Below, piece after piece: positions 4,796-42,508 of a stretch of DNA of 64,000 bases. Made by a program: the position numbers and the translations under genes. The notes below the pieces were generated by a model. That model saw nothing but the letters and a program-made list of their open reading frames with translations. It was not told the origin of the DNA and ran no database searches. The stretch comes from Owenia fusiformis. Lineage: Eukaryota. The DNA is taken from positions 8,060,001 through 8,124,000 of the forward strand of contig CAIIXF020000001.1 of NCBI GenBank assembly GCA_903813345.2, in the 5' to 3' direction. The stretch's first letter is position 1, and each line of letters opens with the position of its first letter.

Positions 4796-6357
4796 TAATT
4801 AAAGTCTCACACTTATTCATTCACCATTCCACGAATGCCGAATGGTGTTTATATTACTGCCAAACCTGTGTTGATTAACCAATTGTTACAGTGTATGATT
4901 ATAAGAAAAGGTATGTCAAAATATCAACTGTTTGAAATGTATTTGTTTAGCAGGGAGGGGTTGGAATTTTAAATTATTACTCTGTAGATATCCCAGTATT
5001 GAGATTATCTTTGGAAGAAAAGTTATAATTGTGATTGAAAAGCAAATGAACAATGAAATCACATACATTTTCTATAGTTGATATTTAGGCATAGTCCTTA
5101 GTCTAAGACTATACAGATAAATAAATAACTGTATAGAAAATTGCAGTGTTCTAATAAATCAAGTATGTAGTCATTAGATAAAGGTGATTTCCATTTCCAC
5201 AGCAATCAAAATAAGCAGTTCACTCATTCTTACATCAACTCATTTTAACTCATTTATTATTCGAATCTAGTAAATAAATTAAAAGTTTAATGAGATTTTC
5301 TTAAGAGTGGAGGTCACCTCATATCATAGAGATATATTATGGACAGTATAGCTGGTAGAGAATATCAGGAGGTTTTAATGCCGGAAGCTTGCTAGATAAG
5401 TAGTGACACATTGGGTTTATAACCTACTATTTTATGTACTGTATAATACTTTTGTAAATCAATGCTTACGTGAGGAGGTACAGTTTGACACTAAGGGAAA
5501 TGTAACATCTGCTGTATGCAACATTGTTATAATGGAGGTAGCAACATTGTTAATATTGAATACCTGTAATCTAAATGAAAATAATATAATATAAAATAAA
5601 GTGTCATGAGACATATTTCTGCTTTATCTTGTTTTTGATTTCAACTTCTGGAAAACACATTTTGATGAACTAACAGACTAAGGAAAATGGTTTTCAGAAA
5701 CCATCTTCAAAAATGAAACTGAAACTAGTAGTTTGAGATTTGAACAATCACACTTTAAGTTTTGACGTTGGGGAATTTCAACAATATACACCGCAGATGC
5801 TGTTGTCCATATCGACAGGAATTATTTATTAAATTCTTTACACGTTTCTTACAAGAATAAACACTAGCGCTGTGTTACATTTTGCAAGAATACAGTTCTT
5901 GTTCATATGTTGTATACAATGTTCAATTTGACCAAATGTCCGTTGGTTGCTTTAACATACCATCAAATACATGATATTTTTAAGTGATGCAACAATGGTT
6001 TTGAGCCTATACTTCAGGGGAGAAAGATCAAAACGAAAACAAATCTCCAACATTTTGGAAAATAACATCTGCAGTCTATGTTTTCTGGCATCTCAATGTC
6101 TGGTTCAATATATGGGTGCTACTACTGGATAAGTTTTAAATGATGTCATTGATTTTTTTGTACATTAATGAACACATTTTAAATTGTACCAAAACTGTTC
6201 AACATTATGTTTGTTTTTTTTGTTTGTTTATTATTGATATTCAACATTATACATGTGTGTAAATATGCAAAAATCAGAAACGAGTTTTGTAAATAAGTTT
6301 ATATCTGTAACTGAAGCCGAGAAATGAAATTTCAAAATTATCCCAGAATTCAGTATT

Positions 6358-6404
6358 CTCAGTCGACAATACACTCGAATAGAGCTTTATATTGTTGACG
6401 TCAT
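6358..6404 (-). promoter_or_regulatory. SECIS element (type II) of the selenoprotein M-like gene
   Basis: Minus strand reads ATGAC-GTCAACAATAT-AAA-GCTC-TATTC-GAGT-GTATTGTCGAC-TGAG: AUGA/GA quartet, 11-bp helix II, unpaired AAA and an apical mini-helix. It lies downstream of the selenoprotein CDS on the same strand. AATAAA on the - strand at 6227-6232 and 5825-5830. Confidence 0.9.
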
Positions 6405-7608
6405 TATTGGGCAATATGAAAATATCATTCAATACTTCATATACAGATATCAGCTAGCCTTGCCCAAGTCGGTCTCCTTTACTATCTGATTTCTATTATG
6501 ACCGCCTTGTACCAAAGAGAAAGCCACGTGCTTTACCGACTCAATGTTTATGTCGGTAAAATTTGACCAATCAACGACGGCCCTGCAGCGTTAGCTCATT
6601 ATTATGCGAGGTCAAAAACAAGTACACTTTTCGTCGGGACTTTTCACGAACAAATCTTGCATGAATTCACGGACGTCAAGTAAGTTTCTGGCGAAAGCCG
6701 GAGCATAGATTATTTAGAGGACTGGAAACCAGAATGACATACCTTTTTATTTCCCGAATCTCGCCTGAAATTAGCTCATCTTGGTGACTGTAACCTGTAT
6801 ATCTGTATTAATAGAGTCTTTTTGTATCGCATCTGCCTCAATTTTAAAGTTTAATTGGTATCTTTAATATGATTTCACTGTTTTTGTGGACTGGTACGAT
6901 TAAGCCAAGCAAATGGCAGCTGATCTGTTCAAAGTACTTTTAGTACTAATTATCGCAAATGACAATAATTTTGGAAACAAAATTATACTAAATAGATTAC
7001 CTTAAGCATCTAAGGTAAGTAAAACTAGATGAACAACTGAGTCAATAGTGAGAAATAGGCCAAAATGAACTGCCAGAATTGAAATAGACTGCCATCTTGT
7101 TTCCAGTCCTCTAAATAATCTATGCTCCAGCTTTCGCCAGAAACGTACTTGACGTCCGTGCATGAATTCATCATGAAAATACAAATATTTTATCAGATAA
7201 ATATCAATCAGAGTTAATTAAGTGGATGCCAGACATCGATCGGTAACCGGAGGTTAGAAGATTTCAACAATAAACGTTGAAAGGATCGCTGAATTCAAAT
7301 GAACATGTAGGCTGAGATTCAATTACTGATCGACGACTACATGACCCGCTACATTGGACTAGGTCTTGCATTTTCATCGCGAGATCAGTTTTAAATCTAT
7401 TGCATGATTTAATTTATATTAATGACTCTTACATTCCCTATGTACATTTAATTACATAATATATTGTAACTCTAAAGAAACGGTCGCGATCGATCAGATC
7501 ATTGAATTTCAAGTCGTAGACGGGAAGATCGTTTTGCTGTGCAGCTCAACCTGATAACGTTTTGATTGGTCAATCAGCCTGAAGTCACACGTCGTGTCCA
7601 CGCGTATA

Positions 7609-10154
7609 GGGTTAACCCAACCAATTGTTATAACATGCGTATTCCCATACAAACGATCTGTCTTCCAGAGAAAACTAAGATTTGTGGAGATGTTTTGCTA
7701 TCATTCCATCATACCCCAGTATGTCCTCTGTCAGTGAAAAAAGTTTGAATCAAAACTCCCCACGAAAATCAAAAGATCTCACCTGTTGAAGACGCCATCT
7801 ATAGAAAATGTCAAAAAATGTCATTCTGATTTTGACAGATGGAGGCAGGTCAAAAAAGTCAAATTTTTTAAAGAAAATGCACCTTAATCACATCAAATCA
7901 TGTCTCAGAGTTGGTCCATACATACACCTTTTCATTCATGTACTTACCAAAATCCAACCACTGGTGATGCTAATGTAATTACAATAATTGGACTATATTT
8001 TTGTTTTTATAATGCCATCTATTCGTCTTCCCACTCGGCGGAAGGATCTAATGGTTGAGTGTCCCCTAGTAGTGACCCATCCTTTAAGTAACAATTGTAA
8101 TTTCCTCCAAAATGTAACCCCAAGTTGTTTTCTAGTAAAATAATACAAACCGCAAGCAGATTCGACTATTTTTTCCAGATATATGAATGATTAAAGTTAC
8201 CCACCTCCTTTCTGCAATTAGATGTTTTCCTGGGATATTGACTAAAATTGTAACCTATGGCTAGATGTGTTGGGAGGTGTCTAGTATGAGCTGGGGAGGT
8301 AGTACAGAGCTGAATGAGCTATATCTGGAAAGCACATTTTGCCTAGAATCAATTTTTGTAATTTAAAGAAATAGTCAATTAATATCTCTTATTTATGCGC
8401 ATATTTAAATAGCACGGGTAGATTTTTGCAAAAAAATGCCTATTCGACACTTTTGGGAAATAGTACAGGCCATCGTGTCATTAAACTTTGTCAAATGATA
8501 GAACAATTCATGTGTTATCAACTACATGAACTAATAGTAATCATTATTATTGCTTCTGAATGTTTACAGAGAAATATTTAGTATGGAGGATACAGAAAAA
8601 TTGGTCATTTTCTCCAATTGTTGTTCTACCCTGGGGAATATTCATCAAAGAAAGCCAAAACAACACATATTTCCAATTATAGGTCTCCCAATTGATAAAT
8701 GATCTCTCTGTACACTGTATTTGATTACTTAGGGTTAAGTCAAGGTTAGGGTTAGGGGTTAGGGTTAGGCTTGGGCTTAGGGTTAGGCTATAGATAGAGC
8801 TAGGGGTAGTGTTGGGGTTAGGGTTAGGCTCTGGCTTAGGGTTAGGCTATAGTTAGGGTTAGGGGTAGTGTTGGGGTTAGGGTTAGGGGCTAGGGTTAGG
8901 CTCTGGCTTAGGGTTAGGCTATAGTTAGGGTTAGGGGTAATGTTGAGGTTAGAGTAAGGGGTTAGGGTTAGGCTCTGGCTTAGGGTTAGGCTATAGTTAG
9001 GGTTAGGGGTAGTGTTGGGGTTATGGTTAGGGGTTAGGCTCTGGCTTAGGGTTAGGCTGTAGTTAGGGTTAGGGATAGTGTTGGGGTTAGGGTTAGGGGT
9101 TGGGGTTAGGCTCTGGCTTAGGGTTAGACTATAGTTAGGGTTAGGGGTAGTGTTGGGGTTAGGGTTAGGGGTTGGGGTTAGGCTTAGGGTTAGGCTATAG
9201 TTAGGATTAGAGATAGTGTTGGGGTTAGGGTAAGGTCATGGCCAATGATTTAGCCTTCCAGAGCAAAATTTGTGAAAATTCCAATAAAAATCATGGAAAC
9301 AGTGGAGAAATATGACCAAACTAACACAAAGTTGACTCCTGGTTGGAGCCTATGACGGATGTGTTGGGAGATGTCTAGTTTGAGCTGGGGAGGTATTACA
9401 GAGCTGAATGAGCTATATCTGGAAAGCACATTTTGCCTAGAATCATTTTTTGTGATTAAGAAAAATAATCAATAAATTTCTCTAATTTATTCACATATTT
9501 AAATAACACGGGGTAAATTTTTTGCGGAAAAATGCTTATTCAGCACTTTTTGGGATAAGCATGGACCATAGTGACATGAAACTCTGTCAAACACATTGAG
9601 AGAGCTGAAATGAATGAAAGTTCCAATAAAAACTGGAAATAGTTGAGAAATATGACCAAATTAAAAAAAAGTGGTACTCCAGAATGGGCGATAATAGGGT
9701 TAACCCAACCAATTGTTATAACATGCGTATTCCCATACAAACGATCTGTCTTCCAGAGAAAACTAAGATTTGTGGAGATGTTTTGCTATCATTCCATCAT
9801 ACCCCAGTATGTCCTCTGTCAGTGAAAAAAGTTTGAATCAAAACTCCCCACGAAAATCAAAAGATCTCACCTGTTGAAGACGCCATCTATAGAAAATGTC
9901 AAAAAATGTCATTCTGATTTTGACAGATGGAGGCAGGTCAAAAAAGTCAAATTTTTTAAAGAAAATGCACCTTAATCACATCAAATCATGTCTCAGAGTT
10001 GGTCCATACATACACCTTTTCATTCATGTACTTACCAAAATCCAACCACTGGTGATGCTAATGTAATTACAATAATTGGACTATATTTTTGTTTTTATAA
10101 TGCCATCTATTCGTCTTCCCACTCGGCGGAAGGATCTAATGGTTGAGTGTCCCC
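7609..10154. mobile_element. Nested composite element with two identical 458-bp long terminal direct repeats (7609-8066, 9697-10154); KolobokP-like architecture, non-autonomous
   Basis: The two copies are identical by eye. Each has imperfect short TIRs (gggttaacccaacca / revcomp ggggacactcaacca) and no TG...CA ends. Flanks are ata...ata. The 1.6-kb interior has a diverged ~240-bp direct repeat (~8264-8495 / ~9358-9590) and no coding ORF. Confidence 0.75.
8729..9236 (+). repeat. Degenerate (TTAGGG)n-derived minisatellite, ~60-75-bp higher-order unit
   Basis: Repeating ggctctggcttagggttaggctatagttagggttaggggtagtgttggggttaggg; G-rich on the + strand. Confidence 0.95.
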
Positions 10155-10537
10155 ATATCTGTTAATCAATAAGGTTTCGCGATACCCCTGATAGCGTAGG
10201 TATTATGGAAATCTCGAAACCGTTGAATATCTCAGCATAATAGCAGCGGAGATGTATTGCATTGTACAAGGCGGTAATAATTCAAGATCAGATAAGTAAA
10301 AAATACCGACTTGGGCAAGGCTAATATCAGCTTGTACAATGCAAAATGTCCCACCAATTTGCAGTTTTGGAGATCACTGAGGCTTCTATATAAAGTGGTG
10401 TCTTGTAGGCTAGAAAGCTTTTTTAGACAATTCTCCTATGGTTATGGATATTGTTATATCATCTAAAAACTTAATCGAATGGAGAACAATCCATGTCTTA
10501 TATTGCTATAAGGGAGATAACTGGTAAACTTCTCATG

Positions 10538-13309
10538 CTATAATTCATCCTTCTGTCCCTTTGGTTTGTAAGGTCCTGTGCGGTATGCTTCTGGGACAAC
10601 CTCGTTCGCTCGTTTTTTCTTATAAAATCCTTGATTCAACAATGCAGCGTTACATTCCTCTTGATCTAAGGGCACCAAATCTACTCTCTGTTGGAACAAA
10701 TAAATAAGATGAACAATGATGGGTGTGAGGTATGTTGTCCTTATGCCAACAGTTTTGGAAATACGAATACAGTATACAATTGTTGACCTCTCCAGAGGTC
10801 AACCGGCAAAATTGTATACCGAGACTGTAAACCGAGAAACTACTGTTGACAGAGACCGAAGGTCGAGGTCAACAGTAGTTTCAAGGTTTACAGTCGAGGT
10901 ATATGATTTTGACGGTTGACCGAATGGAGAGGTCTACAATTGTTTTGTTAGTCAGAAGAAACTAATAATACACATATAGACGACAGTCATCAATCATGGC
11001 TTCATTTCACAATCTTTTCTTCGAACCACGCCAGCAATAATTTTTTAAGAAAATTTGAAGACAGTGGTAGCTAGACTCTCTGTTTTCGGCACATAACTGC
11101 GAACTCACTACGTTTGTATTTGTATTTTTGCTATACTCGTCGTCTAGCAAAGTCAAAATATCACTTTCATCACGTTTACAAAATGTCCGTCTACACTTTT
11201 TTCTGTAAACATTGTGACGTCATATTCCCCATAATTCACAAGTGTAGTACAGTAACATACGCGGTCAATAATATGATATCCCATGATGCACAGGTGAGGT
11301 ACAGGCAAAAATGTTGACCGCTAATTGACCAATCAGATGCGAGTATTTACACTGAGGTACTAACAATAGAACCTGTGTACTGTGAACACCTGGAGTCACA
11401 AATATATGTTCAAGGTGGGTAGGTGTTACTACAGAGAGGGTAATCTATACAGAAGTCAGTAGAATATGTAGAGGAAGGATGTCCACTTGAGACGGGTTCA
11501 CTAGAGAAAGGTATTCAGTAAGACAGATTTTACGGTAAAATAAGGAAAGAATGAATTGTTGATATACTTATCTTTCCAGGGCCAAAATCTATTTTTGACT
11601 AAACATTTTCATATACCTCCTCCCCAAAAGATATTAACTAATCCACACTTCCTCAACTATTGGACACCATTCCCAAAACAATAATTGTTTTTCTTTCAAG
11701 GTTAAAACAAATGACTAATACAATAATATCTCCATTTGTAGTAAACTTGTCACTGAGTAAAAGTGTTCACATTGAGAGGTGTTCATATATGGAAGGTATG
11801 AATACATGGCGACTCAAACTACTTACTAAATCATACTTCTCCAATTATACTTATTCAAAAATATCATCAAATTATGGACACAATTCTGAATAAATAACAT
11901 GATTAAAACAATTATTAGGTGTAAATCATAGCATATACGTAGTTTACAAGGATGGACTTTATTGATACATTAACACCTTTGCATTGTATGGGCGGCATAT
12001 TTCCCATGCTACTTAAAAATATCAAGCTATTCAGAGTAACATTTATATTACCTTAACAACATGACCTTCTTTGTTGAAAAACACCAGCTCTGGTTCTTTG
12101 TGCATAACTTCATGAAACTTAACATTATGGCTTGATCAAGTGAAAGGAAAGTAACATTATTGTTGTTCAAATTATTTAATATTTCAAATACTTTTAATTA
12201 TTTGAATTTCTTTAACATTTCAAATACTTTGAATTTTAAACATGAACTTGTATACCCTGAATGAATAGAAAACATTTGAAAAGATTTTATTAAAAGAAAA
12301 TACAGAATAAAGGCTAATAGGTGTAGACCATGGATGTAAATGGTTATTTACTGATTTGTTGTTTGCTATTTAAAGGATACTACATAGGGAGGTCATCCTC
12401 AAGGAAGTCCTTCACCTCTGGGTACCTGTTTAATGTTCATTTAGTACAGCTCTGGAATAAAAAACCAGCAATCTATTGAAATTGATTTAATATCCATGGA
12501 AATACATGTATTAATCTATAGTTTTAACCACTAATTTTCAAGTTTAAACTTTACAAATTGTATTTATTGTGATAAAATAAAGTGCTGTAAATCAAAGCAT
12601 TTGCTTAAATCATTTATCAAGAGCATGCAGTTAAGTGAACTGACCTTCAGATCGGCCTTTATTAACCATAACCTTGAATATATTTGTGATTGCAACCGTA
12701 TTTGTTGAAATAAATCCCCGCCATCTAGTCATTGTCTTAATTTGTTTCATATAGGCCTATTTTTTATTATTAGTTATGAAGCAAATGGCATATAGTAAAA
12801 TATTGACTTTGTCGAAAAAATATATTGGCAATTAATATTCAAAAGAGCAAGTTCGAGTTGATGATTTTCCATCTTGATGATAGAAATGGTAGGATACAGC
12901 CTTTTGAATTGACAATATCGGATCTTTTCACTGATTTCAAACCAAATCCATGAGTGATTTGTTACACATAAGGTCAAAACATGAAATAAGGCTACTTGAT
13001 ATGAATAAAACAAAATAAAATAAATAAAAAATATAGTAAACTATTTCGGTAAAAATACTTTGCAATCATATATTGGTCACTTTTATCGTTTCGGCTTTAT
13101 CATGTACAGTCAATTTTACATGGACCTTTGCTGATATTATTTGTATTAAAATAGTACTTTGAGCAATATAAACGTTATATCATATACAATGGCATTACCG
13201 CAACCATAGCACCAACGACATCACGGTCTCTCTTCCTTGCTCCATCGGCGTTATGAATAAGCGTTCCTATTAGCACAATCCCAACCAACAGGCTGGAAGG
13301 GCGCATCAT
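10538..13309 (-). CDS. SELENOM: Selenoprotein M-like (SelM/Sep15 thioredoxin-like fold), 136 aa; exons 13309-13199, 12451-12381, 12130-12052, 10687-10538
   Basis: Spliced translation: MMRPSSLLVGIVLIGTLIHNADGARKRDRDVVGAMVA-SCTKUTLNRYPEVKDFLEDDLPMY-HNVKFHEVMHKEPELVFFNKEGHVVK-RVDLVPLDQEECNAALLNQGFYKKKRANEVVPEAYRTGPYKPKGQKDEL*. It has a signal peptide, CxxU with TGA at 12439-12437, LNR.PEVK.F / YHN / PELV / GFY motifs like SelM, and C-terminal KDEL. Splice phases are consistent and a SECIS is present. Confidence 0.95.
10776..11365. mobile_element. Palindrome-bearing interspersed repeat in SelM intron 3 (168-bp hairpin 10776-10943); right boundary approximate
   Basis: acaattgttgacctctcca...tggagaggtctacaattgt long imperfect palindrome centred on gaccgaaggtc; similar hairpins occur at ~37.0 kb and 47.3-48.3 kb. 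Confidence 0.6.
12131..12380 (-). other. Probable U12-type (minor spliceosome) GT-AG intron, intron 2 of the SelM-like gene
   Basis: Donor GTATCCTTT (12380-12372) matches the U12 consensus; branch-like TTCCTTTCAC lies ~10 nt before the AG, with no pyrimidine tract directly at the AG. Confidence 0.75.
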
Positions 13310-14640
13310 TTTTGCAAGTGGATTTCTTTCTTCCCTGATTTCTTTGTTGAATTGTAAAACAGTGAGTGTTCTAATGAGTCTAAGCTCAAATTAATTGTGT
13401 AAAAGTGTACATTTTCACCCTTGAGCAATAGGTAAACGTTATTTTGATTGACATTTACGACAACGGTAGACATCTCTTACCGAGTACCGCAAAACATACA
13501 ACAATATAGCAACTCGATGCTTGCACAATTCATTCTAATGTCATGCTTTGTGAAGGGAGGCTGCAGCCAGTTTGCATTGTATCTTTACTGAACTCATTGA
13601 ATTACTTTGAAATACATAATGTATAACAAGATGATGCCAGACCCTATTTGCAAAATATACCCCAAAGTTAACGTTTTAAGATACAATATAACTAAGTTTA
13701 CACATTAATATTCTTCAATTCACTTGGAATTTTGTAATCATTGCAATTGAAGTGTTATCTGAAGGTTCAGCATCATAGGCTAATGTTACGTCCTTTAAAA
13801 GGGTTGCTCCAGCAACTCGGGGGTAGGGATGGGCTTTGCAGGTACCAATTGTTCTAATCATGAAAAGCTCTAAAGTGTTATTCTATTTATCTTTCTTTCT
13901 TTGAATGATCAAAATGTTTGGGGAATTGTTTACTTTTTTCAGCACAATGTTCACCAAGCACAAATAATGACATTTAGCATTATGATGTCATTTCGCCACA
14001 GTTCAATAGTCACAAAGGAGTGGTATCGATTTGGAGAACTGAATTCAACAATGTTTTTCTCTAAACCAATCATTGAAAACATTCTGTAAAAAACACGGTA
14101 TTTTATGTTGACTGATTGACAACAATTTAATGCGAAAATTATTTAGAAATATTCTATATAACTGTTTTTGTTAACATTTTTTGTTTTTTCAGTGCAATTG
14201 TTTTGCTCCTTTCTACCAATTCTTCAGAATGAAATAAAATGTCTTTCCGAACCTTGTTGGAACAAAATAGCATATACAACATGTTTTAAGACCTCTCAAT
14301 GTTATAGTTATGCAAAGGAATTTTTGGTTGGTTTTAAAAAAGTATTATTAATATTGAGAGACCTAAACATGTTGTGTTTATGTCGTTTTGTTCCAATGAG
14401 GTTCGGAAAGACGTTTCATTTCACTCTGGAAACATGATACCAAGAGCAAAACAAGTGTTTGATGTGTTTTCTAAAACAATATAGATGAAACTATACATAT
14501 ATTTTTCAAATTATATTGTTACCATTCAAAAGATGACCATTAAATTGACAATGTGTAAAAACCTGAGACACACTTCACTTCATTTGGACTCACAGCCATA
14601 CAAACTCACGCCACCGTGAAAAAAGTATATAAGGAATATA

Positions 14641-16440: not shown

Positions 16441-18407
16441 ATGGCTGCTGCCTTGACTGGTATGCTGGTTTCAGAGAAAGATATTAAAACGTAAGTATGT
16501 CACTGGGAATTAGGACCTAAACTAAACTACATTGATCGATACTTTTCAGGTTTACGACTCTGCGACACCCTAGAATCCTTTACTTATTACTCTAGATTTC
16601 AGGATGACGGTGTGGTTGTAGTGAGACAGGTGGTATCCCCAGAATGGGTGGACAAACTCCGAGATGCATTCGACTGGGCCATGAACAACCCTTCCCCCTT
16701 AAGTGAAGAGCATGTTGGAGAGGGAGAGCCAGGTAAGACACTTGTTTCTAACACTTTATAACTTTAGTTTTAAGTATAAAGTGGTTCCCATGGATATAGC
16801 CTATAAGCACAAATGCCAAAGGGAAGGGTGACTAAAAACTTTAAAGAATGCAATTTTTGGAATTTTTGGTGGAATGTTTTTGAATTTTGCAACTCCCAGC
16901 ACATCTTTTATATCAAGCCAGGCTACACCCTTATTAATTTGAGATTTTTTGTTTTGAAAGATATATCCCGAGTGCATGTATTGACTCGGGTCGGGTGTAC
17001 ATTCCCTTTCGTTTCAACAACATACAACAACCGTGTTACTTTAAACTATATAAGTTTTCTGAATTATGAATATATTTCAGGAAGATTCTTCGATGACCAG
17101 TTCCTATGGAAACGAAACGACTCGGTCAAGGACTTTGTTTTCAATGGACCATTGGCAAAAGCTGCAGCCACTGTAATGTCATCAGAAAAGGTATTTACAC
17201 GTAATTTATTAAACCCACAGGAGGAGACAAGAAAAATAAACAAGGCATTAACATGCAAAATGTCACCACATGCCACTTGTTACAAACCCCAAACACCCAA
17301 CACCAACCGTCGAACATCGTCCTGATGGTGACTGACAAACACGAATGAACACTAGAATTGTAATATGGTTAGTGTTGCAATTGTCACGTTTACAATAGCA
17401 ACACCTTTGTTTGTTTATGATTTTACTCAGATTGCTCTGAATCATTTCCAGGTGAATGTCTTCTATGATCATGTTCTCGTTAAGGAACCGAACACGAAGA
17501 GAATTACACCGTGGCACAATGACATGTCTTACTGGCCGATAAAGGGTTCTCAGGTTAGTCTCTGCCATCCTTGGCCCAAGAGTAATTCAATGAATTACAT
17601 GAGCTGCTATGAAAGCAGTGAAGGAGCAATCTTGAAGGATGAGTCATTGTTGTCATCCTCCATAGTTTTCGTTATATCAGTTTTTTGGTTTACCTCCTTT
17701 CATAGATTTGCTCCATATGGATAGCTCTAGATGACGTATCTAAAGCAACCAGTGTGAAGTATGTGAAGGGCTCTCACAAACAAAAACTACTCCACAAAGT
17801 TTCCAGTCTAGGAGGGGATAGTAGAAGTTCGTATGGAGATGGAGGTGGTGAACCGTTGCCAGACATTGATGCATTGCATGAAAATGGTGAATTGGAATTG
17901 GTGAATTGGGATTTGAAGCCAGGTAGGCATAAAAGAAAACTATTGGTAAAATTACATATTCAGGCCATCATGAAAAACCAGTATCTCCGAACTTATGATT
18001 ATGAAGCCCAAAGTCATATGACCAAGCTGTTTTTCCCGATTTGAAATATTCGGAATGGTTCCTGGATTTTTGGGCTCTTAAATCCAGATCTCCCGAGGGA
18101 CAAAACGCCATTAAGGCAGGATTCATGCCATGATCTTCCGACTATCTACTTTGTAGTCACTTGTTCTTTTGTTCTTTAAGGTGATGTCTTGATCCATCAT
18201 GGATTTACCATCCATGGTGCACCTGGGAACATCAACTCTACGACAAGACGAAGGGGGTATGTAGTAAGATGGCTTGGAGACGACATGAGGTTCGACCCGA
18301 GACCTGGTACAATGTACAAGGCGTGGACTGAAAAGGGTGGATATCACTTAGGACTTGCAGCAGGGGATACGATGAACTGTGATTTATTTCCCTCTGTAAA
18401 CTTTTAG
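16441..18407 (+). CDS. PhyH-family (phytanoyl-CoA dioxygenase-like) Fe(II)/2-oxoglutarate dioxygenase, 280 aa; exons 16441-16490, 16596-16732, 17081-17190, 17452-17553, 17706-17922, 18181-18407
   Basis: GT-AG joins keep frame (843 nt). Motifs: FQDDGVVVVRQVV, FYDHVLVKEP, TPWHND (HxD), SIWIALDDV, VKGSH, LKPGDVLIHHGFTIHGA (distal His), RRRGY. AATAAA follows the stop. Confidence 0.92.
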
Positions 18408-19678: not shown

Positions 19679-20479
19679 TCAATTCATGAAGAACTTTATA
19701 ATCTGAACGGTAACCCACAAATAATCAGTTTTGTGATGTAAAGTTGTAAGTCCAAAATCAAGCAACTGCTGGGGCACGACGAGATTCTCACTGTCCCACT
19801 TGAACAATGCTTCAAGAACAGCGGGATGGTGGGAGTAGTCAGGGTGACCGCAAAAACATAGAATATGCTTCCCTAAGATGAACCCCTGGTACTGTGTTGA
19901 ACGACTGGAGCCAATGCTACATGCGGCGTCTGGCAACGACACTAAAGCATCGTTATGGTGGTACAGGAGGCTGAATGTGTCGCGCGTCGTCTTAAAGTAC
20001 TCCTTAGCTACGTCAGTTAGGGGAACAGTGACTCTGGAAATCTCGCTGCCTTTTGGATTCTTCTCGACGTGTCCTCCAAGAGCTTTCGCAATTATCTGGT
20101 GTCCGAATGAAATGCCGACCATTTTTCTATTCTCCGATTGAAGCGTTTTTACGAATGTCAACAATGCATCGATCCAGGGGTCTCCGTCATAAACACCACT
20201 GAGTGACCCCGATATGATAAACCCTGCGTAGATGTCCAATTTCTCAGGGTACACTCCCTTCTTGACATCAAACGACTTAATTTTGATTTTCGGCAGCTTC
20301 GTATTCTCGTCACCTGGGCTTTCAGTTTTCAGCGTCTCCAAAGGTAGCGAAGTGACGTAATCAAACATGCTTTGTGCCATATCGGGGTATCCCCCAGAGA
20401 GGAAGTATACTTGTTCTGGAAGATATTCCTTTAAATCCTCACATTGTAGGTAGCCGATGGTGAGCACATTATCATCCAT
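19679..20479 (-). CDS. Class I glutamine amidotransferase-like / gamma-glutamyl peptidase-like protein, intronless CDS, 266 aa
   Basis: Motifs GFIISGS, PWI..L, nucleophile elbow GISFGHQIIAKALGG and GHPD; family consensus is GICFGHQ and GHPE. Confidence 0.9.
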   Translation of the reverse strand: MDDNVLTIGYLQCEDLKEYLPEQVYFLSGGYPDMAQSMFDYVTSLPLETLKTESPGDENTKLPKIKIKSFDVKKGVYPEKLDIYAGFIISGSLSGVYDGDPWIDALLTFVKTLQSENRKMVGISFGHQIIAKALGGHVEKNPKGSEISRVTVPLTDVAKEYFKTTRDTFSLLYHHNDALVSLPDAACSIGSSRSTQYQGFILGKHILCFCGHPDYSHHPAVLEALFKWDSENLVVPQQLLDFGLTTLHHKTDYLWVTVQIIKFFMN

Positions 20480-22455: not shown

Positions 22456-25436
22456 CTAAAATTCTTTATTTTGAAGCCGTGTGGTATCTTTATTTATTGG
22501 TTGTTGTTGTTTCACATTTTCTGTCATCTTTGGTACAGCAGGTTCGACAGCATTGTTGTATGTTATGAGTATGTGGCTGTGTGAGATAGGGAGTCGATTC
22601 TCTCGACTGTTCGATATCCCATAAGTAATGTAGATAACTAATCCTGAAACCAAATGTTTAGTACATCATTTTTGAGAAACTACTATATTTGGATATATTT
22701 GGATATTTATACTAATTAAAAAAATCAATGCGGGGAACGCTGGATGACTATAAACATCAATAAAAATTGATTCGTAATCGTAAACATATTCGACGTCAGC
22801 CGACTGTGTGTAGAAGGGTCAACTGCAATATCAGGCTATAAGTGTTTTAATTGAAAATCAAGCAATCGAACCCACAATTTAATCTTCATCAACATGAATT
22901 TTTTTTTGATTCGTTCTATTGTCTATTACATTACATTGTGATGTGGATAATTTCACCACTAGCCTGATAAGGGTTTAATGGTACCTAAAGCACTAAATGT
23001 CAATAATAGACAATCGATGGTCACTGTCTTACCAATTGTCCCCCATATTCCAAGTCTTATCCATGCCACTGGTGGCATTTGTACCACCAACAAAATGTTG
23101 ATCAACATACTCAGTGACTCAAGCCACGGAGATAGAGGTACCTAAAAGAAAATATACACATATACAGGTTGGACAAAATAGGATTGTATAACATGGGGTC
23201 AATGGAAAAAACACGGAATAAACGTACACGATCAACAGGAGGGTGTTAGTATTGTGTTCGGATACACACGCTTGATTGTGGAGGAGAGGTGTGAAGTGTA
23301 GAATGAGGGTTGGATATAGGGTAATAAGAGCTTAAAGCAAGACTACAGGGCAATTTATAATATGTAATTTATAGAAAAATGCACTTACTACAAATGTTTT
23401 GAAGCTTGTGTTTTTCTCGTGAGCAGCAACAGTCAATAAGCATAAGATTATTCCCGAGACGAAGAAAATTAGAAATCCGACACTCCACCAATATCCTGCC
23501 AAGATTTCACGACTGAAGTAAACGACCATAACAGAAAAGCCTGCCATGAGTGCTGCCATTAAACCAACAGCTAAAGCTGAAAAATTATGTTGATTTTATA
23601 TTTCACAAGGCATTGACATGCAAAATGTCACCGCCTACCATTTGTTACTGACGCCGAACTCCCACCGCCGTTCGCCAGAACGCCGAACACCGTCCACAAA
23701 AATGTTGGAAACTTCTAGTATAACAATATCTCACCACTTGAAGTGGTTACATAACGTTGATTTGTACATTTAAAACCTAATTTCATAAACGCTGCTAAGT
23801 TCTGTAATAATTATATCGTCCTTAAAGTGGACATCGCAATGACAACATGTAGATATATAGAAATCCGGAAAACAGATACAAACCGATTAAACAGTTCTCA
23901 TTTTTTGACATTCCAGATATAAGTATAAACGACTGACGTACACATGGCAGACAATGGGATTATAACATTCTGCAAAATTTGACTATGACAAATTGTGAAA
24001 TTGAGCAATATTCACTTACAAACAGCATGGCCAGGTTCACAGTCCATGAGAATTGTGAATGGCCATCCATCAAGACCTCGTTTAACTCTTCCTATTCCAG
24101 ATATAGGATCTGTTATAACGATCCTCTTCTTTTCATCTGGATCCTCGTCATTTGGATCTTCTAGTGTCATCTTCACGGTCATCTTCTCTAAGGGAATGTA
24201 CCTTGCAACTATTGTGTTTGCTGCTACAAGCGTGAAGACAATAAGTGTTCCGAGAGAGAGTAAATTTGCCAAAAGTTCGATATCAAATATAAACGCTAGT
24301 ATTGCAGCTATTGTCCCAAATGTTGCAGTGGCCACGATAGGAGTCTGCATCTTAGGATGTGTCGTAGAGAGGAATCGAAAAAGTAATCCATCCGATGCCA
24401 TGGCATATGTTAACCTAGCTATACCGTACATTCTTCCAATTAAAGCATTCATCATGCTGACCAAAGAAATTGGCGCCAAGATCCACATCATCCACGAGAT
24501 TCCGCGGGTAATCATTGCGTTCACAAACGGTGATCTTCTGTCGATCATTTCATAAGGCAATATTAAGGTTAGAGCTGTAGATGCTAATGTATGTACAATT
24601 ACAACAACCGCCATGCTAATAAATGTAGCTTTTGGTAAATTTATATGTGGATCAATGGTTTCTTCTGTTGCAGTCGCCATATTATAAAAGCCACCGTATA
24701 ACACAAACAGCATTCCGGCTCCTGATAAAACTCCATGAAATCCAAAAGGAAGGAATCCACCATTGTCCTCGTTTACCCAATGTTTCCCTTCGGAGAAAGT
24801 TAAGAAAAATCCTATAACAAATACTAGAGCCAAAATGTTGAACCCGACAAAGAAATTATTAAGTAGTTTGAACGATACATTGACAACAAGGCACGCCACG
24901 AGAGAGGCAATGATGACTGACACAATAGCAAGGAAATCAGGATAATTCGCTAACCAAGGCATATTAACAACTCCAATGTTCTTTTGAATACCAGTAGCTA
25001 TTGCACCGCTAGATATAGTGTTAAATGTAGCACTCCAGCCCTTAGCTATAGCTGCTACGGCCAGCAAGTGTTCCATGATCATTACCCAGCCGACCATGAA
25101 TGCCCAAAGCTCCCCATTCATAACATAAGTATATGTATATGCAGCACCAGCACTAGGGAATCTGGATCCCAATTCGGCATAACAAATCGCCGACAGTAGA
25201 GCGGCGAATCCAGCTAATAAATATGCCAGTACGGCCCCGGGTCCAGCAACTTGTGATATGACGACACCAGTCACTGCGTACAGACCTCCACCAACAGAAT
25301 TTCCTATGCCCATAAACGACAAATCCCAAACATCGAGGCATCGTTTTAATGGCGTAATATCATCAGTTGCAAGTTTAGTTCTATTAAGTTTTTCACACAG
25401 TGCTCTGGTGCAGACTTTTGATTTAGGTTTCTCCAT
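22456..25436 (-). CDS. SLC7 cationic amino acid transporter-like (CAT/APC family) paralogue A, 633 aa; exons 25436-24020, 23576-23389, 23141-23033, 22643-22456
   Basis: Motifs LKRCL...GIG, AGP, CYAELGSRFP.AG.AYTY, GGFLPFG, MASDGLLF, and C-terminal VPL.PW...S.LIN / YGI.NS. GT-AG joins keep frame (1902 nt). Confidence 0.93.
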
Positions 25437-28268
25437 CTTGTGTTGTGCTTTATAACACTACCAGCAGCATTCAGAATCACAACCTGAATCAGAGAAGACA
25501 ATTTTTCATACATATTTTGAATGTTTTGAATAGCTAAAACTAGTTTTCTATCAATTATATATCTATATTTATACTCATGACTGATAGATTGATAAAAAAG
25601 TAACTTGTATAAATTAATGGTCATCGGTATTTCACAATCACTGTTCCAAACAGTACTGCCTTTGCGAGACTCTATGTACTTCATTACAGTAGTTTTATTT
25701 CATCATGTCAATATAAAACTGTTTGTGTTTATAAAAGATTAGATATGACAAAGAATGGATTAGAGATTACCGAAAACAAGTTGTGAAGCATTTGAAAGGT
25801 CACATGTCGAGTACAGTTTCATACAAAATTAACGTAAATATTCATATCCGATCTTAATCAATTGAGTAACAAAATGGATATATAAAAAAAAGCAAGTTAG
25901 ACACAATAATTTTCTGTTTTGTAAAAATATACACATGGCCCTGTTCAAATAAAACCACCCTGAACTGAATCAGTAGATTTACTTATAAAACAACAAAATG
26001 TGAGCTTTAAACTTCACAAATGTAGATTCGCCAAACTGTAAAACGCCTAAAAGTTTAAATTGCAAGCACATATTTTTTAAATTTTGTCTCAACTTAATTT
26101 CCTACAATCATATGTTAACGTACTTTATCTATTTAATGCGTTTTGAAATACATCATTTCAGTTTTTTCAAATTGAAAGTGTTGAAGAAGTCATATCGTAA
26201 GACTATAGTTTTTATTTTACGACCCTCTACTACTAGATAGTACCTTACCTTCTACTGATACATTACATTCAACATGAACTCTAAAGTATCCAACGTCTTA
26301 TCGCTGGATATGCTTCTATTCAAAATTGGTCAAAAAGTAATCTTTTCACGATTATGAATACACTTCCTTTGGTCTGTTTTTTTTTTATTCACTTCTATTC
26401 ATAATCGCTGAAACTAGGCTTTGGATCAATACATACTATTAAGAAGAAAATGTTAACTGCTATTGGTGTCTCTTCACAAGGACACGTTTTAAATTTCCAG
26501 CAACATCGATCATCAATTATTGCAATAGTTTCAAATTCAGGTTCGTTTTGCTAAATCTTAACCATCTCGCAATTGTCACTGCCAGGCTTTTAATGGTTTA
26601 GTGACCACGATGAATGTATTGTCCAGCTTATGACAAAAACAGCAAAAATACATTTTAAAGGTACTATGTAGCGCACTCTAATATACTCAAACTGCAACCC
26701 CCAATTGTGAATGCAAACAGTGAATGCGAATTAAATGTAACTTAAGATTATATGTGAGATTTAAGCTAGTTCAAAATTTTCAAAATAATTCATAATGCAT
26801 TGATATTGTATTGTAAAATCATATTCGTTCTAGCAGGTGTAGATTGAGAAAAGATTGCTTTTACTTTATTGCGAATAAGTCTCTACCAGCATATTCATTG
26901 TAGAACAAACTCAAAGATAGTTATTAACGTTTTCAAACAATATAATACAAACGTGCAGCTGCTGTTGAATAATGATTTGTATTTTATGCTGGATCATTTA
27001 CGTTTGGGATGCTTGGGGTCACTCTGTTCGTTTTCTGGTAACTTTTTCAAACACTTTTTTCGGTGTTTTCCTGTTAATTTTGAAGGTTAAAAACCTAACT
27101 TCTCAATGTCTTCAAGTTTGATAACGAGCCATACCTGTTATTTTCTAGTGTGAGTATAGGGCCAACCTCACTCAAGTTTTGCAGATTTTTTTTTATTTTA
27201 ATCAGTTTAAATGTGTTTTTCAATCAAACAGTAAATATGAAGTCTTATATGGTTGTTATATTTAATCTCAAACACCTCACACATAATGATATAAGCAAAT
27301 CTTGGCTACGCCCTTGAGTATTATCTTGGATTACCAAGGAATGGCGTTTTCATACTAGTAATTGAAAATCAAACTGGTGAGGAGTATGCCTGAGTATTAC
27401 ATGGAAATATGATAGCATCAAATCTTTTTGGAGAGAGTCATATCATTTCATTGGTCAGAATCCTATCAATTTCATCAGAAAATCAGTTGTATACAACTGT
27501 AAGACTGTCTTTTTAGGTCTTCACTACTACCATACTGTTTTCTTCATAGAACACCTTTTGCACATTGAGAACGCGGCTGACAATGCTATTGCCCAGCCCC
27601 CCCCCAAATAAATTGTACAATCAGCTTTACAATATAATACGTTAGCGTCATAAGATAATGTAAATGAGTCAGTCAAAAAGCGGGTCAGTGAATCCACTTA
27701 TTTTTGAAATTGTAAAAGTGTATTAACTAATATTTAAAAAAAGTTACTTACCGTACTAAGTGTAGCTTATGTTTTATCAATGTATGGCCATCACGATTTT
27801 CTTCAGTCAAACATACGAGACTTTGCCGAACTTCATGGTTTCTATTCACCTTATTGATCGACATGCAAAATTTATATACAGTAGGTCACTGCAATGTCTC
27901 ACCACTCTTGGCTTATAATCCGTTTCTGTAATTCAGTATAACTGAGTTGAAACTTATCAGTTCTGCTCTGTTGAATTTTGGTCGTCCTAATATTTAATCG
28001 TCGTGAAGTTACTTATGTGTTGACCACGGGGAACTTCATCTCACATCTAAAATAGATGAAACGCTAGTTAGGTCGCCACATGTACAGACCACTTGCTTGA
28101 ATATTTAGTTTTATAAAAAATGTCGGCCTATACGCATTTTAAGTGAAGTATTTGATTTATACATGCTTTAAAAGGATTGTGTGAAGCATTCTTAGTTGTA
28201 TCAATAAAAATCTACCGGAGTTGAAGTAGTGAATACCAAGCAGCGAAGCGATTATGTGTGTATATACA

Positions 28269-30519: not shown

Positions 30520-32257
30520 ATTGTATTTATATCTGTACATAAAATTTTGACCAGAGGTCATGCAATCATATGATAAGTGGTTTCGTCAAACCGTTAAAAC
30601 TGCCTTTTTGGCAAAAGATATGTTGTCCTTAGAAAACATAAAAAAGCCTCGCCACAGTGAACATCTTTTGATTGCCAATGATCCCATACTGGATCTGAAC
30701 GGCTGAGGTTGTCCACGCAAAAGGATGGGGTGGCCAGTGACCGATGACTGTAGTTTCCGTATCATTCAAACACTTCTGTTACTGAGTTTCTTTTTCTGAT
30801 CAAGTTTTTTATTAATCTTCCGATTCATTTATCATTTTAATCCATATCGTATGTAATGAAATTTCAAGTTTTACCAGTTAACAATTGTATTGAACTTGTT
30901 GAACAAAGAATGGTAACCAGCATTCCTCTTTTGACACATAACAAAATTAAACATAAGGGTTTGTGTGGACTTACCAATGTCTGTATTGTATTTACAATTG
31001 CGTGTAAAACTAGGTAAAAAGTAGAAAATGAATTTTATTTTGAAATAGACTATTTTATTTAACGTGTTCACAGAAAATGTATTGAAAATATATCAATTGC
31101 AAGACATTATAGAAACATGTACTTGCATAGGTTAGTTTCAATCAATCGCTCTATTTACACAACACACATGATGAATAAATTCAGGTGAGTAACCATTGCG
31201 ATGATTGTCGTTTCCGTTTCATTCACAAAATTATCCAAGCTGGCAGAAAAGCTTACGTACGCTTTTTGAATTTGCTCTCTGTTGATTGGTCAGTTGAATG
31301 GTCATTATCTTTGTGCTTATTTTGGAATACGTAATTTAGCATTGAATTATACACTAGGGTTCGATTTTGAACACAACGTTTCAGCTGTATTTGACATTCT
31401 TCTTCGCGTATATTTCCCGGTATATTTGCACAATCGAAAAATGTCCTTTTGACAAATTGCAAACATTTTCATGAATATCTTTCTAAACTGACGATTATCA
31501 TGAAATGCATAACCGTAACATCACTTCCTAGTCTTCATTCCCGGAAGTCGAGACCCGATGTGAATGTGAAACAAGAAGCAAGTTCTCAGGTATTAACATG
31601 GGTTGAATTCTATGTTTAATATATTGAATATATGAATTCTATGTTTAATATATATGACTTGCATGAATTGTAAGCGTTGGAACTTGCTATTAGTATGAAC
31701 AATATGCAGAAACATGGTTTTAAGATTGGGAGATTGTTTTTTTGGTATAAAACGACGGTACGGACCAATGGAAATTTGTCCTACTTGACGCGATGCTTGT
31801 GGGACATATTCATGGAAATGACCATTTCGCGCGTCGGATTGAATGCAATTGAATGTTGCATGCGTATTTCAAAATTGAATGCTTCATTTCAGTTGCGACA
31901 ATCAAAAATAAAAGGTAAATTCCATATAGAGTGATTCCCCAAATATTCGTTTGAAGTTCCAACAATTTGAGATATAGGTGGTTTATAATTTAGGCTACTA
32001 TATACGATCCCAATTGGCCAAGAGAAAAACAAAAATCAATTCCACCATCTTGGAATATTTTGCTGGGATATTACGATAACTATAGTAACTGTAACGGTTA
32101 TTCCCCAATCACTGTATATACTAAACCTACAATAAGCAGTTGTATTTTAATATTGAAAAGACGTCGATCAGGTACAAGGAAATACATGAGCAATATTTAG
32201 TGAATGCAAACGGATTTATATCTCTTGATCGGATTTAACAACAAACATAGAGAAAAC

Positions 32258-41497: not shown

Positions 41498-42508
41498 ATG
41501 TTAGCTTCAAAAGTATACTTCGTATTTTGCTCTGTCTTTGTTATTTCAATAGTGGCGTTTTTTGTACTTATGGCAGATAGAAAACTGATTAATGAACCTA
41601 GCATTTTTAGAAGAGAAAAGGCAAGGAAGCTGAATGAATTGGAATTAAATGTATTAAACTCTGGATTCAAGAAACATACAGTCGAGGAGAGGATGACACC
41701 ATTTAAAATCTACTCAGAAGCAAACAGAAAACTTGTGTTTTACAACAGAATGCCCAAATGTGGCTCACGCACTATGTTAACTTTATTTCAAAAAAGGAAT
41801 CATGTTTTTGAATTGACAGAAACAGATATATTCGATGAACGTCAATTGAATGAAAAAGAACTTTATGAATATGTACATTCATTCAAAAAATCATCAAAGA
41901 AACAGTTAAGAGAACGTCATCTTCATTTTGTTAATTTTGAAAGGTATGGTTTGAAGCAGCCAATTTATATCAACTTAATTAGAGAACCATTTGAGCAGGC
42001 TCTTTCGAGGTATTATTACCACTTTGAGAGAGGATTAGTTAAGAAACAATTAAAAGGGAGAAAAATCCAAACGTTTGAAGAATGTGTTGTGAACAATTTG
42101 AATAGCTCTCTACCAATTAAAGGATGCGTTTTCTCTTCAAGAGAATATGTGCTTTGGTTTTGTGGACATGATGAAGCATGTTCCTATATGGATTATGGAC
42201 TAGCAAAGGCCAAACGAAACATCGAGAAATATTACATGCTGATTGGCCTAACTGAGGAGTATGCTGAAACTTTACAAGCTTTAGAACTTATGCTACCATC
42301 TTACTTCAAGGGCATGGGTAAGATCGACACCAATGCTACGAAGAAACACAAAATACCATCTTCAAAAAAGATAAGACCATCTGAAAAAATAATCCAACTT
42401 ATCAAAATACGATTGGGATACAACTACGAAATATACAATTTTGTGAAACAAAAGTTCCACATCACATTGAAGAGCTTGGGGATATATTATACCAAAAATT
42501 CAATTTGA
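41498..42508 (+). CDS. Heparan sulfate 2-O-/uronyl 2-sulfotransferase-like Golgi sulfotransferase, single coding exon, 336 aa
   Basis: N-terminal type II TM anchor; 5'-PSB YNRMPKCGSRT; HLHFVNF; 3'-PB YINLIREP...SRYYY; WFCGHD..C; AKRNIE.YY.LIGLTEE. First ATG at 41498 (the ORF track uses GTG at 41477). Confidence 0.92.
   Translation: MLASKVYFVFCSVFVISIVAFFVLMADRKLINEPSIFRREKARKLNELELNVLNSGFKKHTVEERMTPFKIYSEANRKLVFYNRMPKCGSRTMLTLFQKRNHVFELTETDIFDERQLNEKELYEYVHSFKKSSKKQLRERHLHFVNFERYGLKQPIYINLIREPFEQALSRYYYHFERGLVKKQLKGRKIQTFEECVVNNLNSSLPIKGCVFSSREYVLWFCGHDEACSYMDYGLAKAKRNIEKYYMLIGLTEEYAETLQALELMLPSYFKGMGKIDTNATKKHKIPSSKKIRPSEKIIQLIKIRLGYNYEIYNFVKQKFHITLKSLGIYYTKNSI

Follow-up and report, generated by a model that had tools for sequence, protein, structure and literature searches.

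Natural variation in the distance between the coding region and the SECIS element is known from several selenoprotein genes. In mammalian selenoprotein mRNAs the UGA-to-SECIS distance ranges from 207 to 5,207 nt, Dio2 having the longest (PMC3316567), and in mouse MsrB1 a naturally altered stop-to-SECIS spacer is reported to leave selenocysteine (Sec) insertion unchanged (PMC2901347). The SECIS can also be missing from the mRNA, human SELENOS and SELENOP being described with variants lacking the sole SECIS in the former and SECIS 2 in the latter (PMC5133445). Here we describe a non-autonomous cut-and-paste transposon that interrupts the 3'UTR of an intact gene for selenoprotein M (SelM), where it separates the stop codon from the candidate SECIS (Table 1). 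The insertion is real but fairly ordinary, and it is most likely tolerated or mildly weakening.

Table 1. Positions of the SelM gene, its putative 3'UTR signals and the inserted element within the window, the 64-kb stretch of DNA analysed in full
Feature	Position	Strand	Remarks
SelM exon 1, coding part	13199..13309	-	ATG at 13309; 37 codons; read from sequence
SelM exon 2	12384..12451	-	Sec codon TGA 12439-12437, motif S-C-T-K-U; Pfam Sep15_SelM
SelM exon 3	12052..12130	-	Pfam Sep15_SelM, E 0.02
SelM exon 4, coding part	10538..10687	-	ends K-D-E-L + TAG 10540-10538; PDB 2a2p_A
Proximal 3'UTR, 214 nt	10324..10537	-	last 8 nt (10331-10324) are one target-site duplication copy
Non-autonomous terminal-inverted-repeat DNA transposon, 3,869 bp	6455..10323		terminal inverted repeats and target-site duplication
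Terminal inverted repeat, stop-codon side	10264..10323		86.7% to other end; last 18 nt perfect
461-nt direct repeat, copy 2	9694..10154		100% identical to 7606-8066
AATAAA within element	9486..9491	-	first one the polymerase reaches
Minisatellite from TTAGGG	8726..9235		periods 72 and 138 nt
461-nt direct repeat, copy 1	7606..8066		100% identical to 9694-10154
Foldback	6658..7170		76-nt arms, 91% complementary, 361 nt apart
AATAAA within element	6746..6751	-	transcribed strand
Terminal inverted repeat, SECIS side	6455..6512		inverted counterpart of 10264-10323
Target-site duplication ATATCAGC, second copy	6447..6454		exact 8 bp
Candidate SECIS, type 2 by fold	6347..6416	-	ATGA 6404-6401, AAA bulge, 4-bp apical stem, GA 6360-6359
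AATAAA, likely normal poly(A) signal	6227..6232	-	115 nt past SECIS

The spliced model of the SelM gene on the minus strand comprises four exons and three GT-AG introns and encodes 136 codons, stop-type codons occurring only at codon 42 (TGA) and codon 136 (TAG). The TGA, the sole internal one and the Sec codon already proposed at position 42 by the first-pass annotation of this DNA, supplies the U of the redox motif C-x-x-U, here C-T-K-U. The protein ends in KDEL, and its hydrophobic N-terminus resembles, judged by eye, a signal peptide. The thioredoxin-like redox domain of the Sep15/SelM family (PF08806) is recognized in two consecutive matches on the Sep15_SelM profile, exon 2 covering profile positions 5-26 (E 7.9e-6, 26.3 bits, cut-off 26) and exon 3 positions 29-55 (15.3 bits); the scores are low because the exons were scanned one by one. 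The exon 4 peptide has no Pfam match, its single match in the PDB is selenoprotein M (E 0.012), and a homologue search with it against longer proteins returned four candidates, none of which was scored. With the 22 residues of exon 2, too short to inform, SelM came third among five weak PDB matches (E 0.52). Lipid-transfer proteins ranked above SelM in this last search. The genes around SelM indicate no more than an animal-like genome.

The ends of the inserted element are sharply defined. The two copies of the 8-bp duplication ATATCAGC, at 6447-6454 and 10324-10331, are identical, and within the window the 18-nt terminus TAGCCTTGCCCAAGTCGG has exactly two occurrences, 6455-6472 on the plus and 10306-10323 on the minus strand; allowing up to three mismatches, two matches were reached in 0 of 100 shuffles. 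By arithmetic, an 18-nt perfect inverted pair less than 10 kb apart with a flanking 8-bp direct repeat is expected by chance about 1e-7 times per window. Of the features named in the first-pass annotation, the 8-bp duplication thus stands as described, and the perfect terminal inverted repeat holds for the termini (18 of 18 positions), the inverted repeats beyond being imperfect over 58-60 nt (86.7%; 29 nt at 90%).

The two further attributes given to the element, hAT-like and probably recent, are both less secure than the first-pass annotation has them. With non-autonomous hAT elements it shares, as judged from its own sequence only, the 8-bp duplication, short perfect termini starting with TAG, a repeat-rich interior and the lack of a transposase, but neither a transposase remnant nor a second copy of the element or its ends was found within the 64-kb window, so that the name is tentative. 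Of the 12 ORFs reaching 60 aa, 10 were scanned (all but the minisatellite ORF 8783-9235 and ORF 9643-9825) and none matched Pfam, no ORF in the element exceeds 150 aa, and tRNA-derived parts are absent from 5000-14000. The hAT terminal motif is YARNG, with which the termini, reading TAGCC, agree in the first three bases and disagree in the fifth, and 8-bp target duplications are also made by the P, Merlin and some Mutator-like superfamilies. We call the element hAT-like by the duplication only. The insertion appears young, the duplication being intact, although such a duplication dates poorly; that the SelM gene shows no decay is compatible with an insertion that is harmless as well as with one that is very recent.

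The interior of the element is rich in repeats. The foldback is bracketed by an 11-bp direct repeat GCATGAATTCA, and the foldback region as a whole (7175-6655) has a predicted folding energy of -196 kcal/mol. This region and the two element ends could each give rise to long double-stranded RNA. The 461-nt perfect direct repeats were considered as LTRs and rejected, a flanking duplication being absent.

The stem-loop beyond the element has the features of a SECIS core, with 12 nt from ATGA to AAA and 10 of 11 pairs formed in helix II; helix II plus the quartet amount to 15 positions, in agreement with the published 14-15 bp (PMC2761289). Helix I, in which the cmscan alignment has 2 non-standard pairs out of 5, is weak. 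Between 6150 and 10600, SECIS_1 matches this candidate and nothing else, at 18.8 bits and thus below the Rfam gathering score of 35, which is a curated cut-off and no biological criterion. Its E-value depends on the size of the search (0.19 for 151 nt, 5.7 for 4.45 kb), and SECIS was not among the Rfam matches at E <= 10 over 15 kb. A pattern scan demanding a perfect 5-bp helix I found no locus in the window, the candidate included (shuffle mean 1.8). A second scan of both strands of the window, in which helix I was dropped and helix II tightened after the first had failed, so that the control is partly fitted to the candidate, found one locus, the candidate itself, versus a shuffle mean of 0.84. 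This count is no better than chance; position and strand alone are telling, the stem-loop lying in the 3'UTR on the same strand as the gene with the Sec-TGA and upstream of the poly(A) signal. No SECIS-like candidate is present in the proximal 3'UTR, and with looser settings no other was found from the stop codon to position 5000. The location given for the SECIS in the first-pass annotation is upheld, the stem-loop being the sole SECIS-like structure in the window.

There is a small chance that this stem-loop is not a working SECIS or that the arrangement is an assembly artefact. The sub-threshold SECIS_1 score and the weak helix I would be in line with the former, and the 100% identity of the 461-nt internal repeat could hint at assembly trouble. 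However, the stem-loop fits a SECIS in its core, AAA bulge and apical stem as well as in spacing, strand and location immediately ahead of AATAAA. Downstream of the stop codon there is no alternative candidate, and each junction carries the exact target duplication, the hallmark of a genuine insertion.

The element starts 214 nt after the stop codon and ends 50 nt before the ATGA core, both distances as first annotated. Owing to the element, the 3'UTR of SelM would measure about 4.3 kb instead of about 0.43 kb, and the stop-to-SECIS distance is extended 16-fold, from 256 nt at the computed empty site to 4,133 nt, matching the earlier estimate of about 4.1 kb; the UGA-to-SECIS distance is 4,415 nt compared to 538 nt at the computed empty site. 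The earlier assertion that multi-kilobase distances are workable agrees with the mammalian range, within which the SelM spacing falls, so that it should be tolerable (PMC3316567). In silico, the nearby end of the element leaves the SECIS fold intact: 10 of 11 helix II pairs reach a predicted probability of at least 0.97 whether the SECIS is folded together with the element end, in the computed empty site or by itself.

These observations bear on the possibility, tentative in our view, that the insertion is neutral, the long 3'UTR being transcribed through, the distal SECIS working as before and protein output being unchanged. A spacing inside the natural range (PMC3316567) and the equivalence of the MsrB1 spacer variants in Sec insertion (PMC2901347) are both in its favour. 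The same applies to the unchanged predicted SECIS fold, to the integrity of coding sequence, splice sites and SECIS, to the lack of enrichment of poly(A) hexamers in the element and to the potential of its ends to pair in the RNA, looping the insert out. However, the added 3.9 kb brings in six poly(A)-type hexamers as well as two long repeats able to form hairpins, and long, structured 3'UTRs usually lower mRNA output.

The pairing of the element's two ends is predicted at -79.5 kcal/mol, compared to -21.4 +/- 3.5 kcal/mol in 200 shuffles. It is conceivable, if improbable, that the ends pair within the mRNA with about 3.75 kb looped out, which would bring the SECIS spatially within about 260 nt of the stop codon. 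If this were true, Sec decoding of the insertion allele would depend on whether the long-range stem forms, is unwound or is edited, and the allele would be a natural test of linear versus spatial distance in SECIS action.

Both AATAAA hexamers that had been located on the transcribed strand of the element are present, and four ATTAAA are found in addition on this strand (at 7452, 7413, 6868 and 6855). These six hexamers in 3,869 nt correspond to 1.55/kb, below the window average of 2.34/kb, and therefore nothing marks the element as a terminator; the sub-average density favours neutrality and makes extensive premature polyadenylation less likely. Nevertheless, the two AATAAA and four ATTAAA may pose a risk of premature 3' ends. 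The AATAAA at 9491 is encountered 1,047 nt past the stop codon and upstream of the SECIS, and the 50 nt downstream of it contain 42% T and 54% G+T.

If most transcripts were polyadenylated inside the element, they would be without a SECIS, their translation would end at codon 42 and they would be degraded, making the insertion a null allele. The early position of the AATAAA at 9491, the composition downstream of it and the location of the UGA in exon 2 with two exon junctions downstream are compatible with this scenario, but we consider it doubtful given that the hexamer density is under background and that an old null allele would not be expected to retain its gene and SECIS intact.

Alternatively, the element or most of it could be spliced out as a 3'UTR intron, restoring the short spacer. 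The transcribed strand has donor-like sites (TTG/GTAAGT) at positions 10035 and 7947, but a simple filter for acceptor-like sites (at least 13 of 15 pyrimidines, then YAG) found none anywhere in the UTR, and a junction between exons so far past the stop codon would itself invite decay. We regard such an intron as very unlikely. Even less to be expected is an evolved alternative-polyadenylation switch tuning Sec decoding of SelM. The human SELENOS and SELENOP variants mentioned above offer a precedent for it (PMC5133445), but the sequence holds no pointer to regulation, the product of a SECIS-less SelM mRNA would be just 41 residues long and mostly putative signal peptide, and the insertion seems young from its exact duplication.

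Taken together, the features of the locus suggest a model according to which the transposon acts as a passive spacer in the SelM 3'UTR, lengthening the 3'UTR and the UGA-to-SECIS distance and resulting in a tolerated allele with somewhat reduced output, i.e. a mild hypomorph, to which we assign a probability of roughly 0.5. Transcripts running to the poly(A) signal at 6232 would retain the SECIS undisturbed and still decode UGA-42 as Sec, whereas transcripts cleaved at a cryptic signal in the element would lose the SECIS and terminate translation at codon 42. Such SECIS-less transcripts would be likely targets of nonsense-mediated decay, as two exon junctions lie downstream of codon 42. We prefer the mild hypomorph over a null allele or an evolved switch, the degree of weakening being a guess, and the first-pass reading of the insertion as a null or hypomorphic allele or an alternative-polyadenylation switch describes only a possibility.

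If the insertion is polymorphic, it would constitute a natural experiment in which SelM is equipped with either a 256-nt or a 4.1-kb stop-to-SECIS spacer while coding sequence and SECIS are unchanged, and a comparison of the alleles would reveal the in vivo cost to Sec decoding of a foreign, structured and hexamer-bearing spacer. Reporter work and natural genes have already established that the SECIS tolerates kilobases of distance and that SECIS loss through 3'-end choice truncates the products; the gain would therefore be incremental. A word search of the open-access literature found no case of a transposon between stop codon and SECIS.

Several known systems resemble the SelM locus in part. 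Human SELENON likewise is a selenoprotein gene with a transposable element, an exonized Alu, that can divert transcripts to decay; the Alu is intronic and acts via splicing (PMC9076623), whereas the SelM element resides in the 3'UTR, downstream of the stop codon and upstream of the SECIS. As in SELENOS and SELENOP, the choice of the mRNA 3' end would set the presence of the SECIS and hence the reading of UGA as Sec; those variants were seen as transcripts and do not stem from a transposon (PMC5133445), and the SECIS-less SelM product would, unlike theirs, be a 41-residue stub. With mouse MsrB1, the common feature is a natural change in stop-to-SECIS length that spares the SECIS; in MsrB1 intronization of the 3'UTR shortens the spacer by splicing out most of it, both forms inserting Sec equally (PMC2901347), whereas in SelM an insertion lengthens it, and the SelM arrangement differs from MsrB1 as well as from SELENOS and SELENOP in being known from DNA alone. 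Dio2 has in common with SelM a UGA-to-SECIS distance of several kilobases, which in mammals reaches 5,207 nt (PMC3316567) and in SelM is 4,415 nt. The spacing in Dio2, however, is old and conserved, whereas the SelM spacer consists of foreign, repeat-rich DNA added to a computed ancestral spacing of 538 nt.

The selenoprotein M (SelM) gene is intact, as are its splice sites and very probable SECIS, the RNA stem-loop signalling selenocysteine (Sec) insertion, and a terminal-inverted-repeat DNA transposon of 3,869 bp lies between the stop codon and the SECIS. We favour a reading according to which this SelM insertion allele is tolerated but mildly weakened, with a probability of about one half. 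The minus-strand four-exon gene is identified by its sequence features as that of SelM. Its spliced frame comprises 136 codons, in which the only stop-type codons are a TGA within a C-T-K-U motif at codon 42, exactly where the first-pass annotation had placed Sec, and the TAG that forms codon 136. The introns, of 747, 253 and 1,364 nt, all have GT-AG borders, and the protein ends in K-D-E-L. Scanned alone, exons 2 and 3 match Pfam Sep15_SelM (E 7.9e-6 and E 0.02) at consecutive profile positions, while exon 4, having no match in the Pfam scan, has selenoprotein M as its single PDB match (2a2p_A residues 71-116, E 0.012). The last intron also holds a palindromic MITE-like structure at 10776-10943, some 90 nt ahead of exon 4, with 61-nt arms matching at 84% and separated by 3 nt (outer 19-nt arms at 95%).

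Within the annotated region 6405-10537, the element forms a discrete unit at 6455-10323 carrying the signature of a cut-and-paste insertion, since perfect termini adjoin an exact direct repeat. The perfect terminal inverted repeat and 8-bp target duplication described earlier are both present: the outermost 18 bases are perfectly inverted, and the 8-bp ATATCAGC directly abuts both ends (6447-6454 and 10324-10331). Allowing up to 3 mismatches, the 64-kb window contains just two matches to the 18-mer, one per element end and on opposite strands, a result seen in 0 of 100 shuffles; by an arithmetic estimate, such termini with an abutting direct repeat are expected by chance about 1e-7 times per window. 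The inverted repeat extends imperfectly, with 90% over 29 nt and 86.7% over 58-60 nt. As a separate observation, an exact 14-nt inverted match links the element interior (10257-10270) to the flanking 3'UTR (10331-10344), overlapping the target duplication by that repeat's final base and belonging to a 23-nt, 83% inverted repeat; its core TTGTACAA is a palindrome by itself, and in RNA the match would place the element's first inverted end inside a hairpin.

The element is non-autonomous, showing no open frame longer than 150 aa (the longest being minisatellite translation), no Pfam match for the 10 scanned of its 12 ORFs of at least 60 aa and no tRNA-like parts. Its interior is a patchwork of repeats, in which the foldback with its bracketing 11-bp repeat may represent a smaller, nested element, and the identical 461-nt repeat, lacking a flanking duplication, might stem from duplication in the very recent past, from gene conversion or from the assembly. 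On the transcribed strand, both 461-nt copies include a donor-like TTGGTAAGT, at 10035 and 7947; removal of the element by splicing appears very improbable. The earlier designation as hAT-like is unproven: the 8-bp duplication and TAG terminus agree with it, whereas the fifth terminal base departs from what we take to be the hAT terminal motif and no transposase match was found. Other superfamilies make 8-bp target duplications as well. No part of the element recurs elsewhere in the window, and only its duplication and terminus speak for a putative hAT membership.

Features of the SelM gene, the inserted element and neighbouring frames (window coordinates)
Feature	Position	Strand	Identity	Remarks
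SelM exon 1, coding part	13309-13199	minus		
SelM exon 2	12451-12384	minus		
SelM exon 3	12130-12052	minus		
SelM exon 4	10687-10538	minus		
Foldback, 76-nt arms	6658-6733 / 7095-7170		91%	bracketed by 11-bp direct repeat
11-bp direct repeat GCATGAATTCA	6659-6669 + 7160-7170			brackets foldback 6658-7170
461-nt direct repeat	7606-8066 / 9694-10154		100%	2,088 bp apart
Second repeat pair in element	8248-8495 / 9343-9591		84%	
TTAGGG-variant minisatellite	8726-9235			periods 72 + 138 nt, ~7 copies
Class-I glutamine amidotransferase gene	19682-20479	minus		intronless; Pfam GATase E 1.3e-10
Amino-acid permease frame	24015-25457	minus		long, uninterrupted; Pfam AA_permease_2 E 9.1e-32
Amino-acid permease frame	32204-33916	plus		long, uninterrupted; Pfam AA_permease_2 E 2e-47
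Sulfotransfer_2 frame	41498-42505	plus		uninterrupted

Among the neighbouring genes, the amidotransferase has 29 matches, of which the named ones are bryophytes and other streptophytes (42-46% identity, the lycophyte Diphasiastrum reaching 50% across 68% of the query); weak matches of bacterial type come next, no animal protein is included, and its Atlas neighbours are mostly bacterial. Since the remaining genes of the window are animal in look, it could be a gene-transfer candidate or reflect a sampling gap. The permease frames lie about 7 kb apart, the sulfotransferase frame has animal heparan-sulfate 2-O-sulfotransferase-like proteins as nearest Atlas clusters, and several plus-strand open frames at 16495-18404, between SelM and the amidotransferase, resemble exons of one gene, three pieces of which had no Pfam match at E <= 0.001.

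Beyond the element, the minus strand presents ATGA (6404-6401), 12 nt, AAA, a 4-bp apical stem, the return strand and GA (6360-6359), and unconstrained folding yields exactly the type-2 shape. Rfam SECIS_1 aligns this candidate end to end at 18.8 bits, below the gathering score of 35; it was absent from the matches of a 15-kb search and the only match (E 5.7) in the 4.45 kb from upstream of the stop to past the poly(A) signal. A pattern scan requiring a perfect 5-bp helix I missed it, with 0 matches in the window (shuffle mean 1.8), and a second scan with helix I dropped and helix II tightened left this candidate as the one locus across the two strands of the window (shuffle mean 0.84), a count proving little because the settings were altered after the first miss. 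What counts is placement: the candidate lies on the correct strand and in the correct UTR, 115 nt ahead of the AATAAA (6232-6227). A looser setting gave no further candidate from the stop codon to position 5000, nor was an alternative found in the 214-nt proximal UTR or the element. The SECIS at 6416-6347 is very probably genuine, its weak helix I being a caveat, and an artefactual arrangement or a wrong SECIS is very unlikely.

All distances given in the first-pass annotation (214 nt after the stop, about 50 nt before the SECIS core, 256 nt rising to about 4.1 kb) were reproduced. The element starts 214 nt from the stop and ends 50 nt before the ATGA, duplication included, changing stop-to-ATGA from 256 to 4,133 nt, UGA-to-ATGA from 538 to 4,415 nt and the 3'UTR up to the AATAAA from 434 to 4,311 nt, where empty-site values were computed by removing the element and one duplication copy. 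Four points count against a strong effect. The 4,415-nt spacing falls within the 207-5,207 nt reported for mammalian selenoprotein mRNAs (PMC3316567); mouse MsrB1 is reported to insert Sec equally from mRNAs with or without most of the stop-to-SECIS spacer (PMC2901347); 10 of 11 SECIS helix-II pairs have probabilities of at least 0.97 beside the element end, in the computed empty site and alone; and the element's poly(A) hexamers (2 AATAAA and 4 ATTAAA in 3,869 nt, 1.55/kb) are sparser than on both window strands (2.34/kb). A null allele is decidedly unlikely. Three other points indicate some cost: all six hexamers come ahead of the SECIS, strong double-stranded RNA formers are predicted in the additional 3.9 kb, and translation of an early-ending transcript would stop at codon 42, with degradation expected because two exon junctions lie downstream. 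A fully neutral insertion is rather unlikely. If both element ends are on one RNA, their pairing has a predicted energy of -79.5 kcal/mol (200 shuffles: -21.4 +/- 3.5, best -35.5), a stem that might loop out the insert (3.75-kb loop) and bring the SECIS back near the stop. The first-pass observation is thereby borne out and its interpretation supported in part: the anatomy is correct, and the controls somewhat weaken the proposal of a null or hypomorphic allele or poly(A) switch. Since four points stand against a strong effect and three for some cost, we rank the mildly weakened allele first, followed by neutrality, a null allele, splicing alongside artefact or wrong SECIS, and lastly an evolved switch.

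The SelM case represents an ordinary 3'UTR transposon insertion in an unusually informative location; a word search of titles and abstract openings showed no transposon between stop codon and SECIS among the literature matches listed. An evolved polyadenylation switch, the most improbable reading, has transposon-free precedents, since SECIS-lacking mRNA variants through 3'-end choice are reported for human SELENOS (sole SECIS) and SELENOP (SECIS 2) (PMC5133445); there the SECIS is lost without a transposon, whereas in SelM a transposon precedes it. In SELENON, a transposable element is reported to affect a selenoprotein gene from an intron, acting through exonization (PMC9076623), in contrast to the SelM element, which resides in the 3'UTR between stop codon and SECIS.
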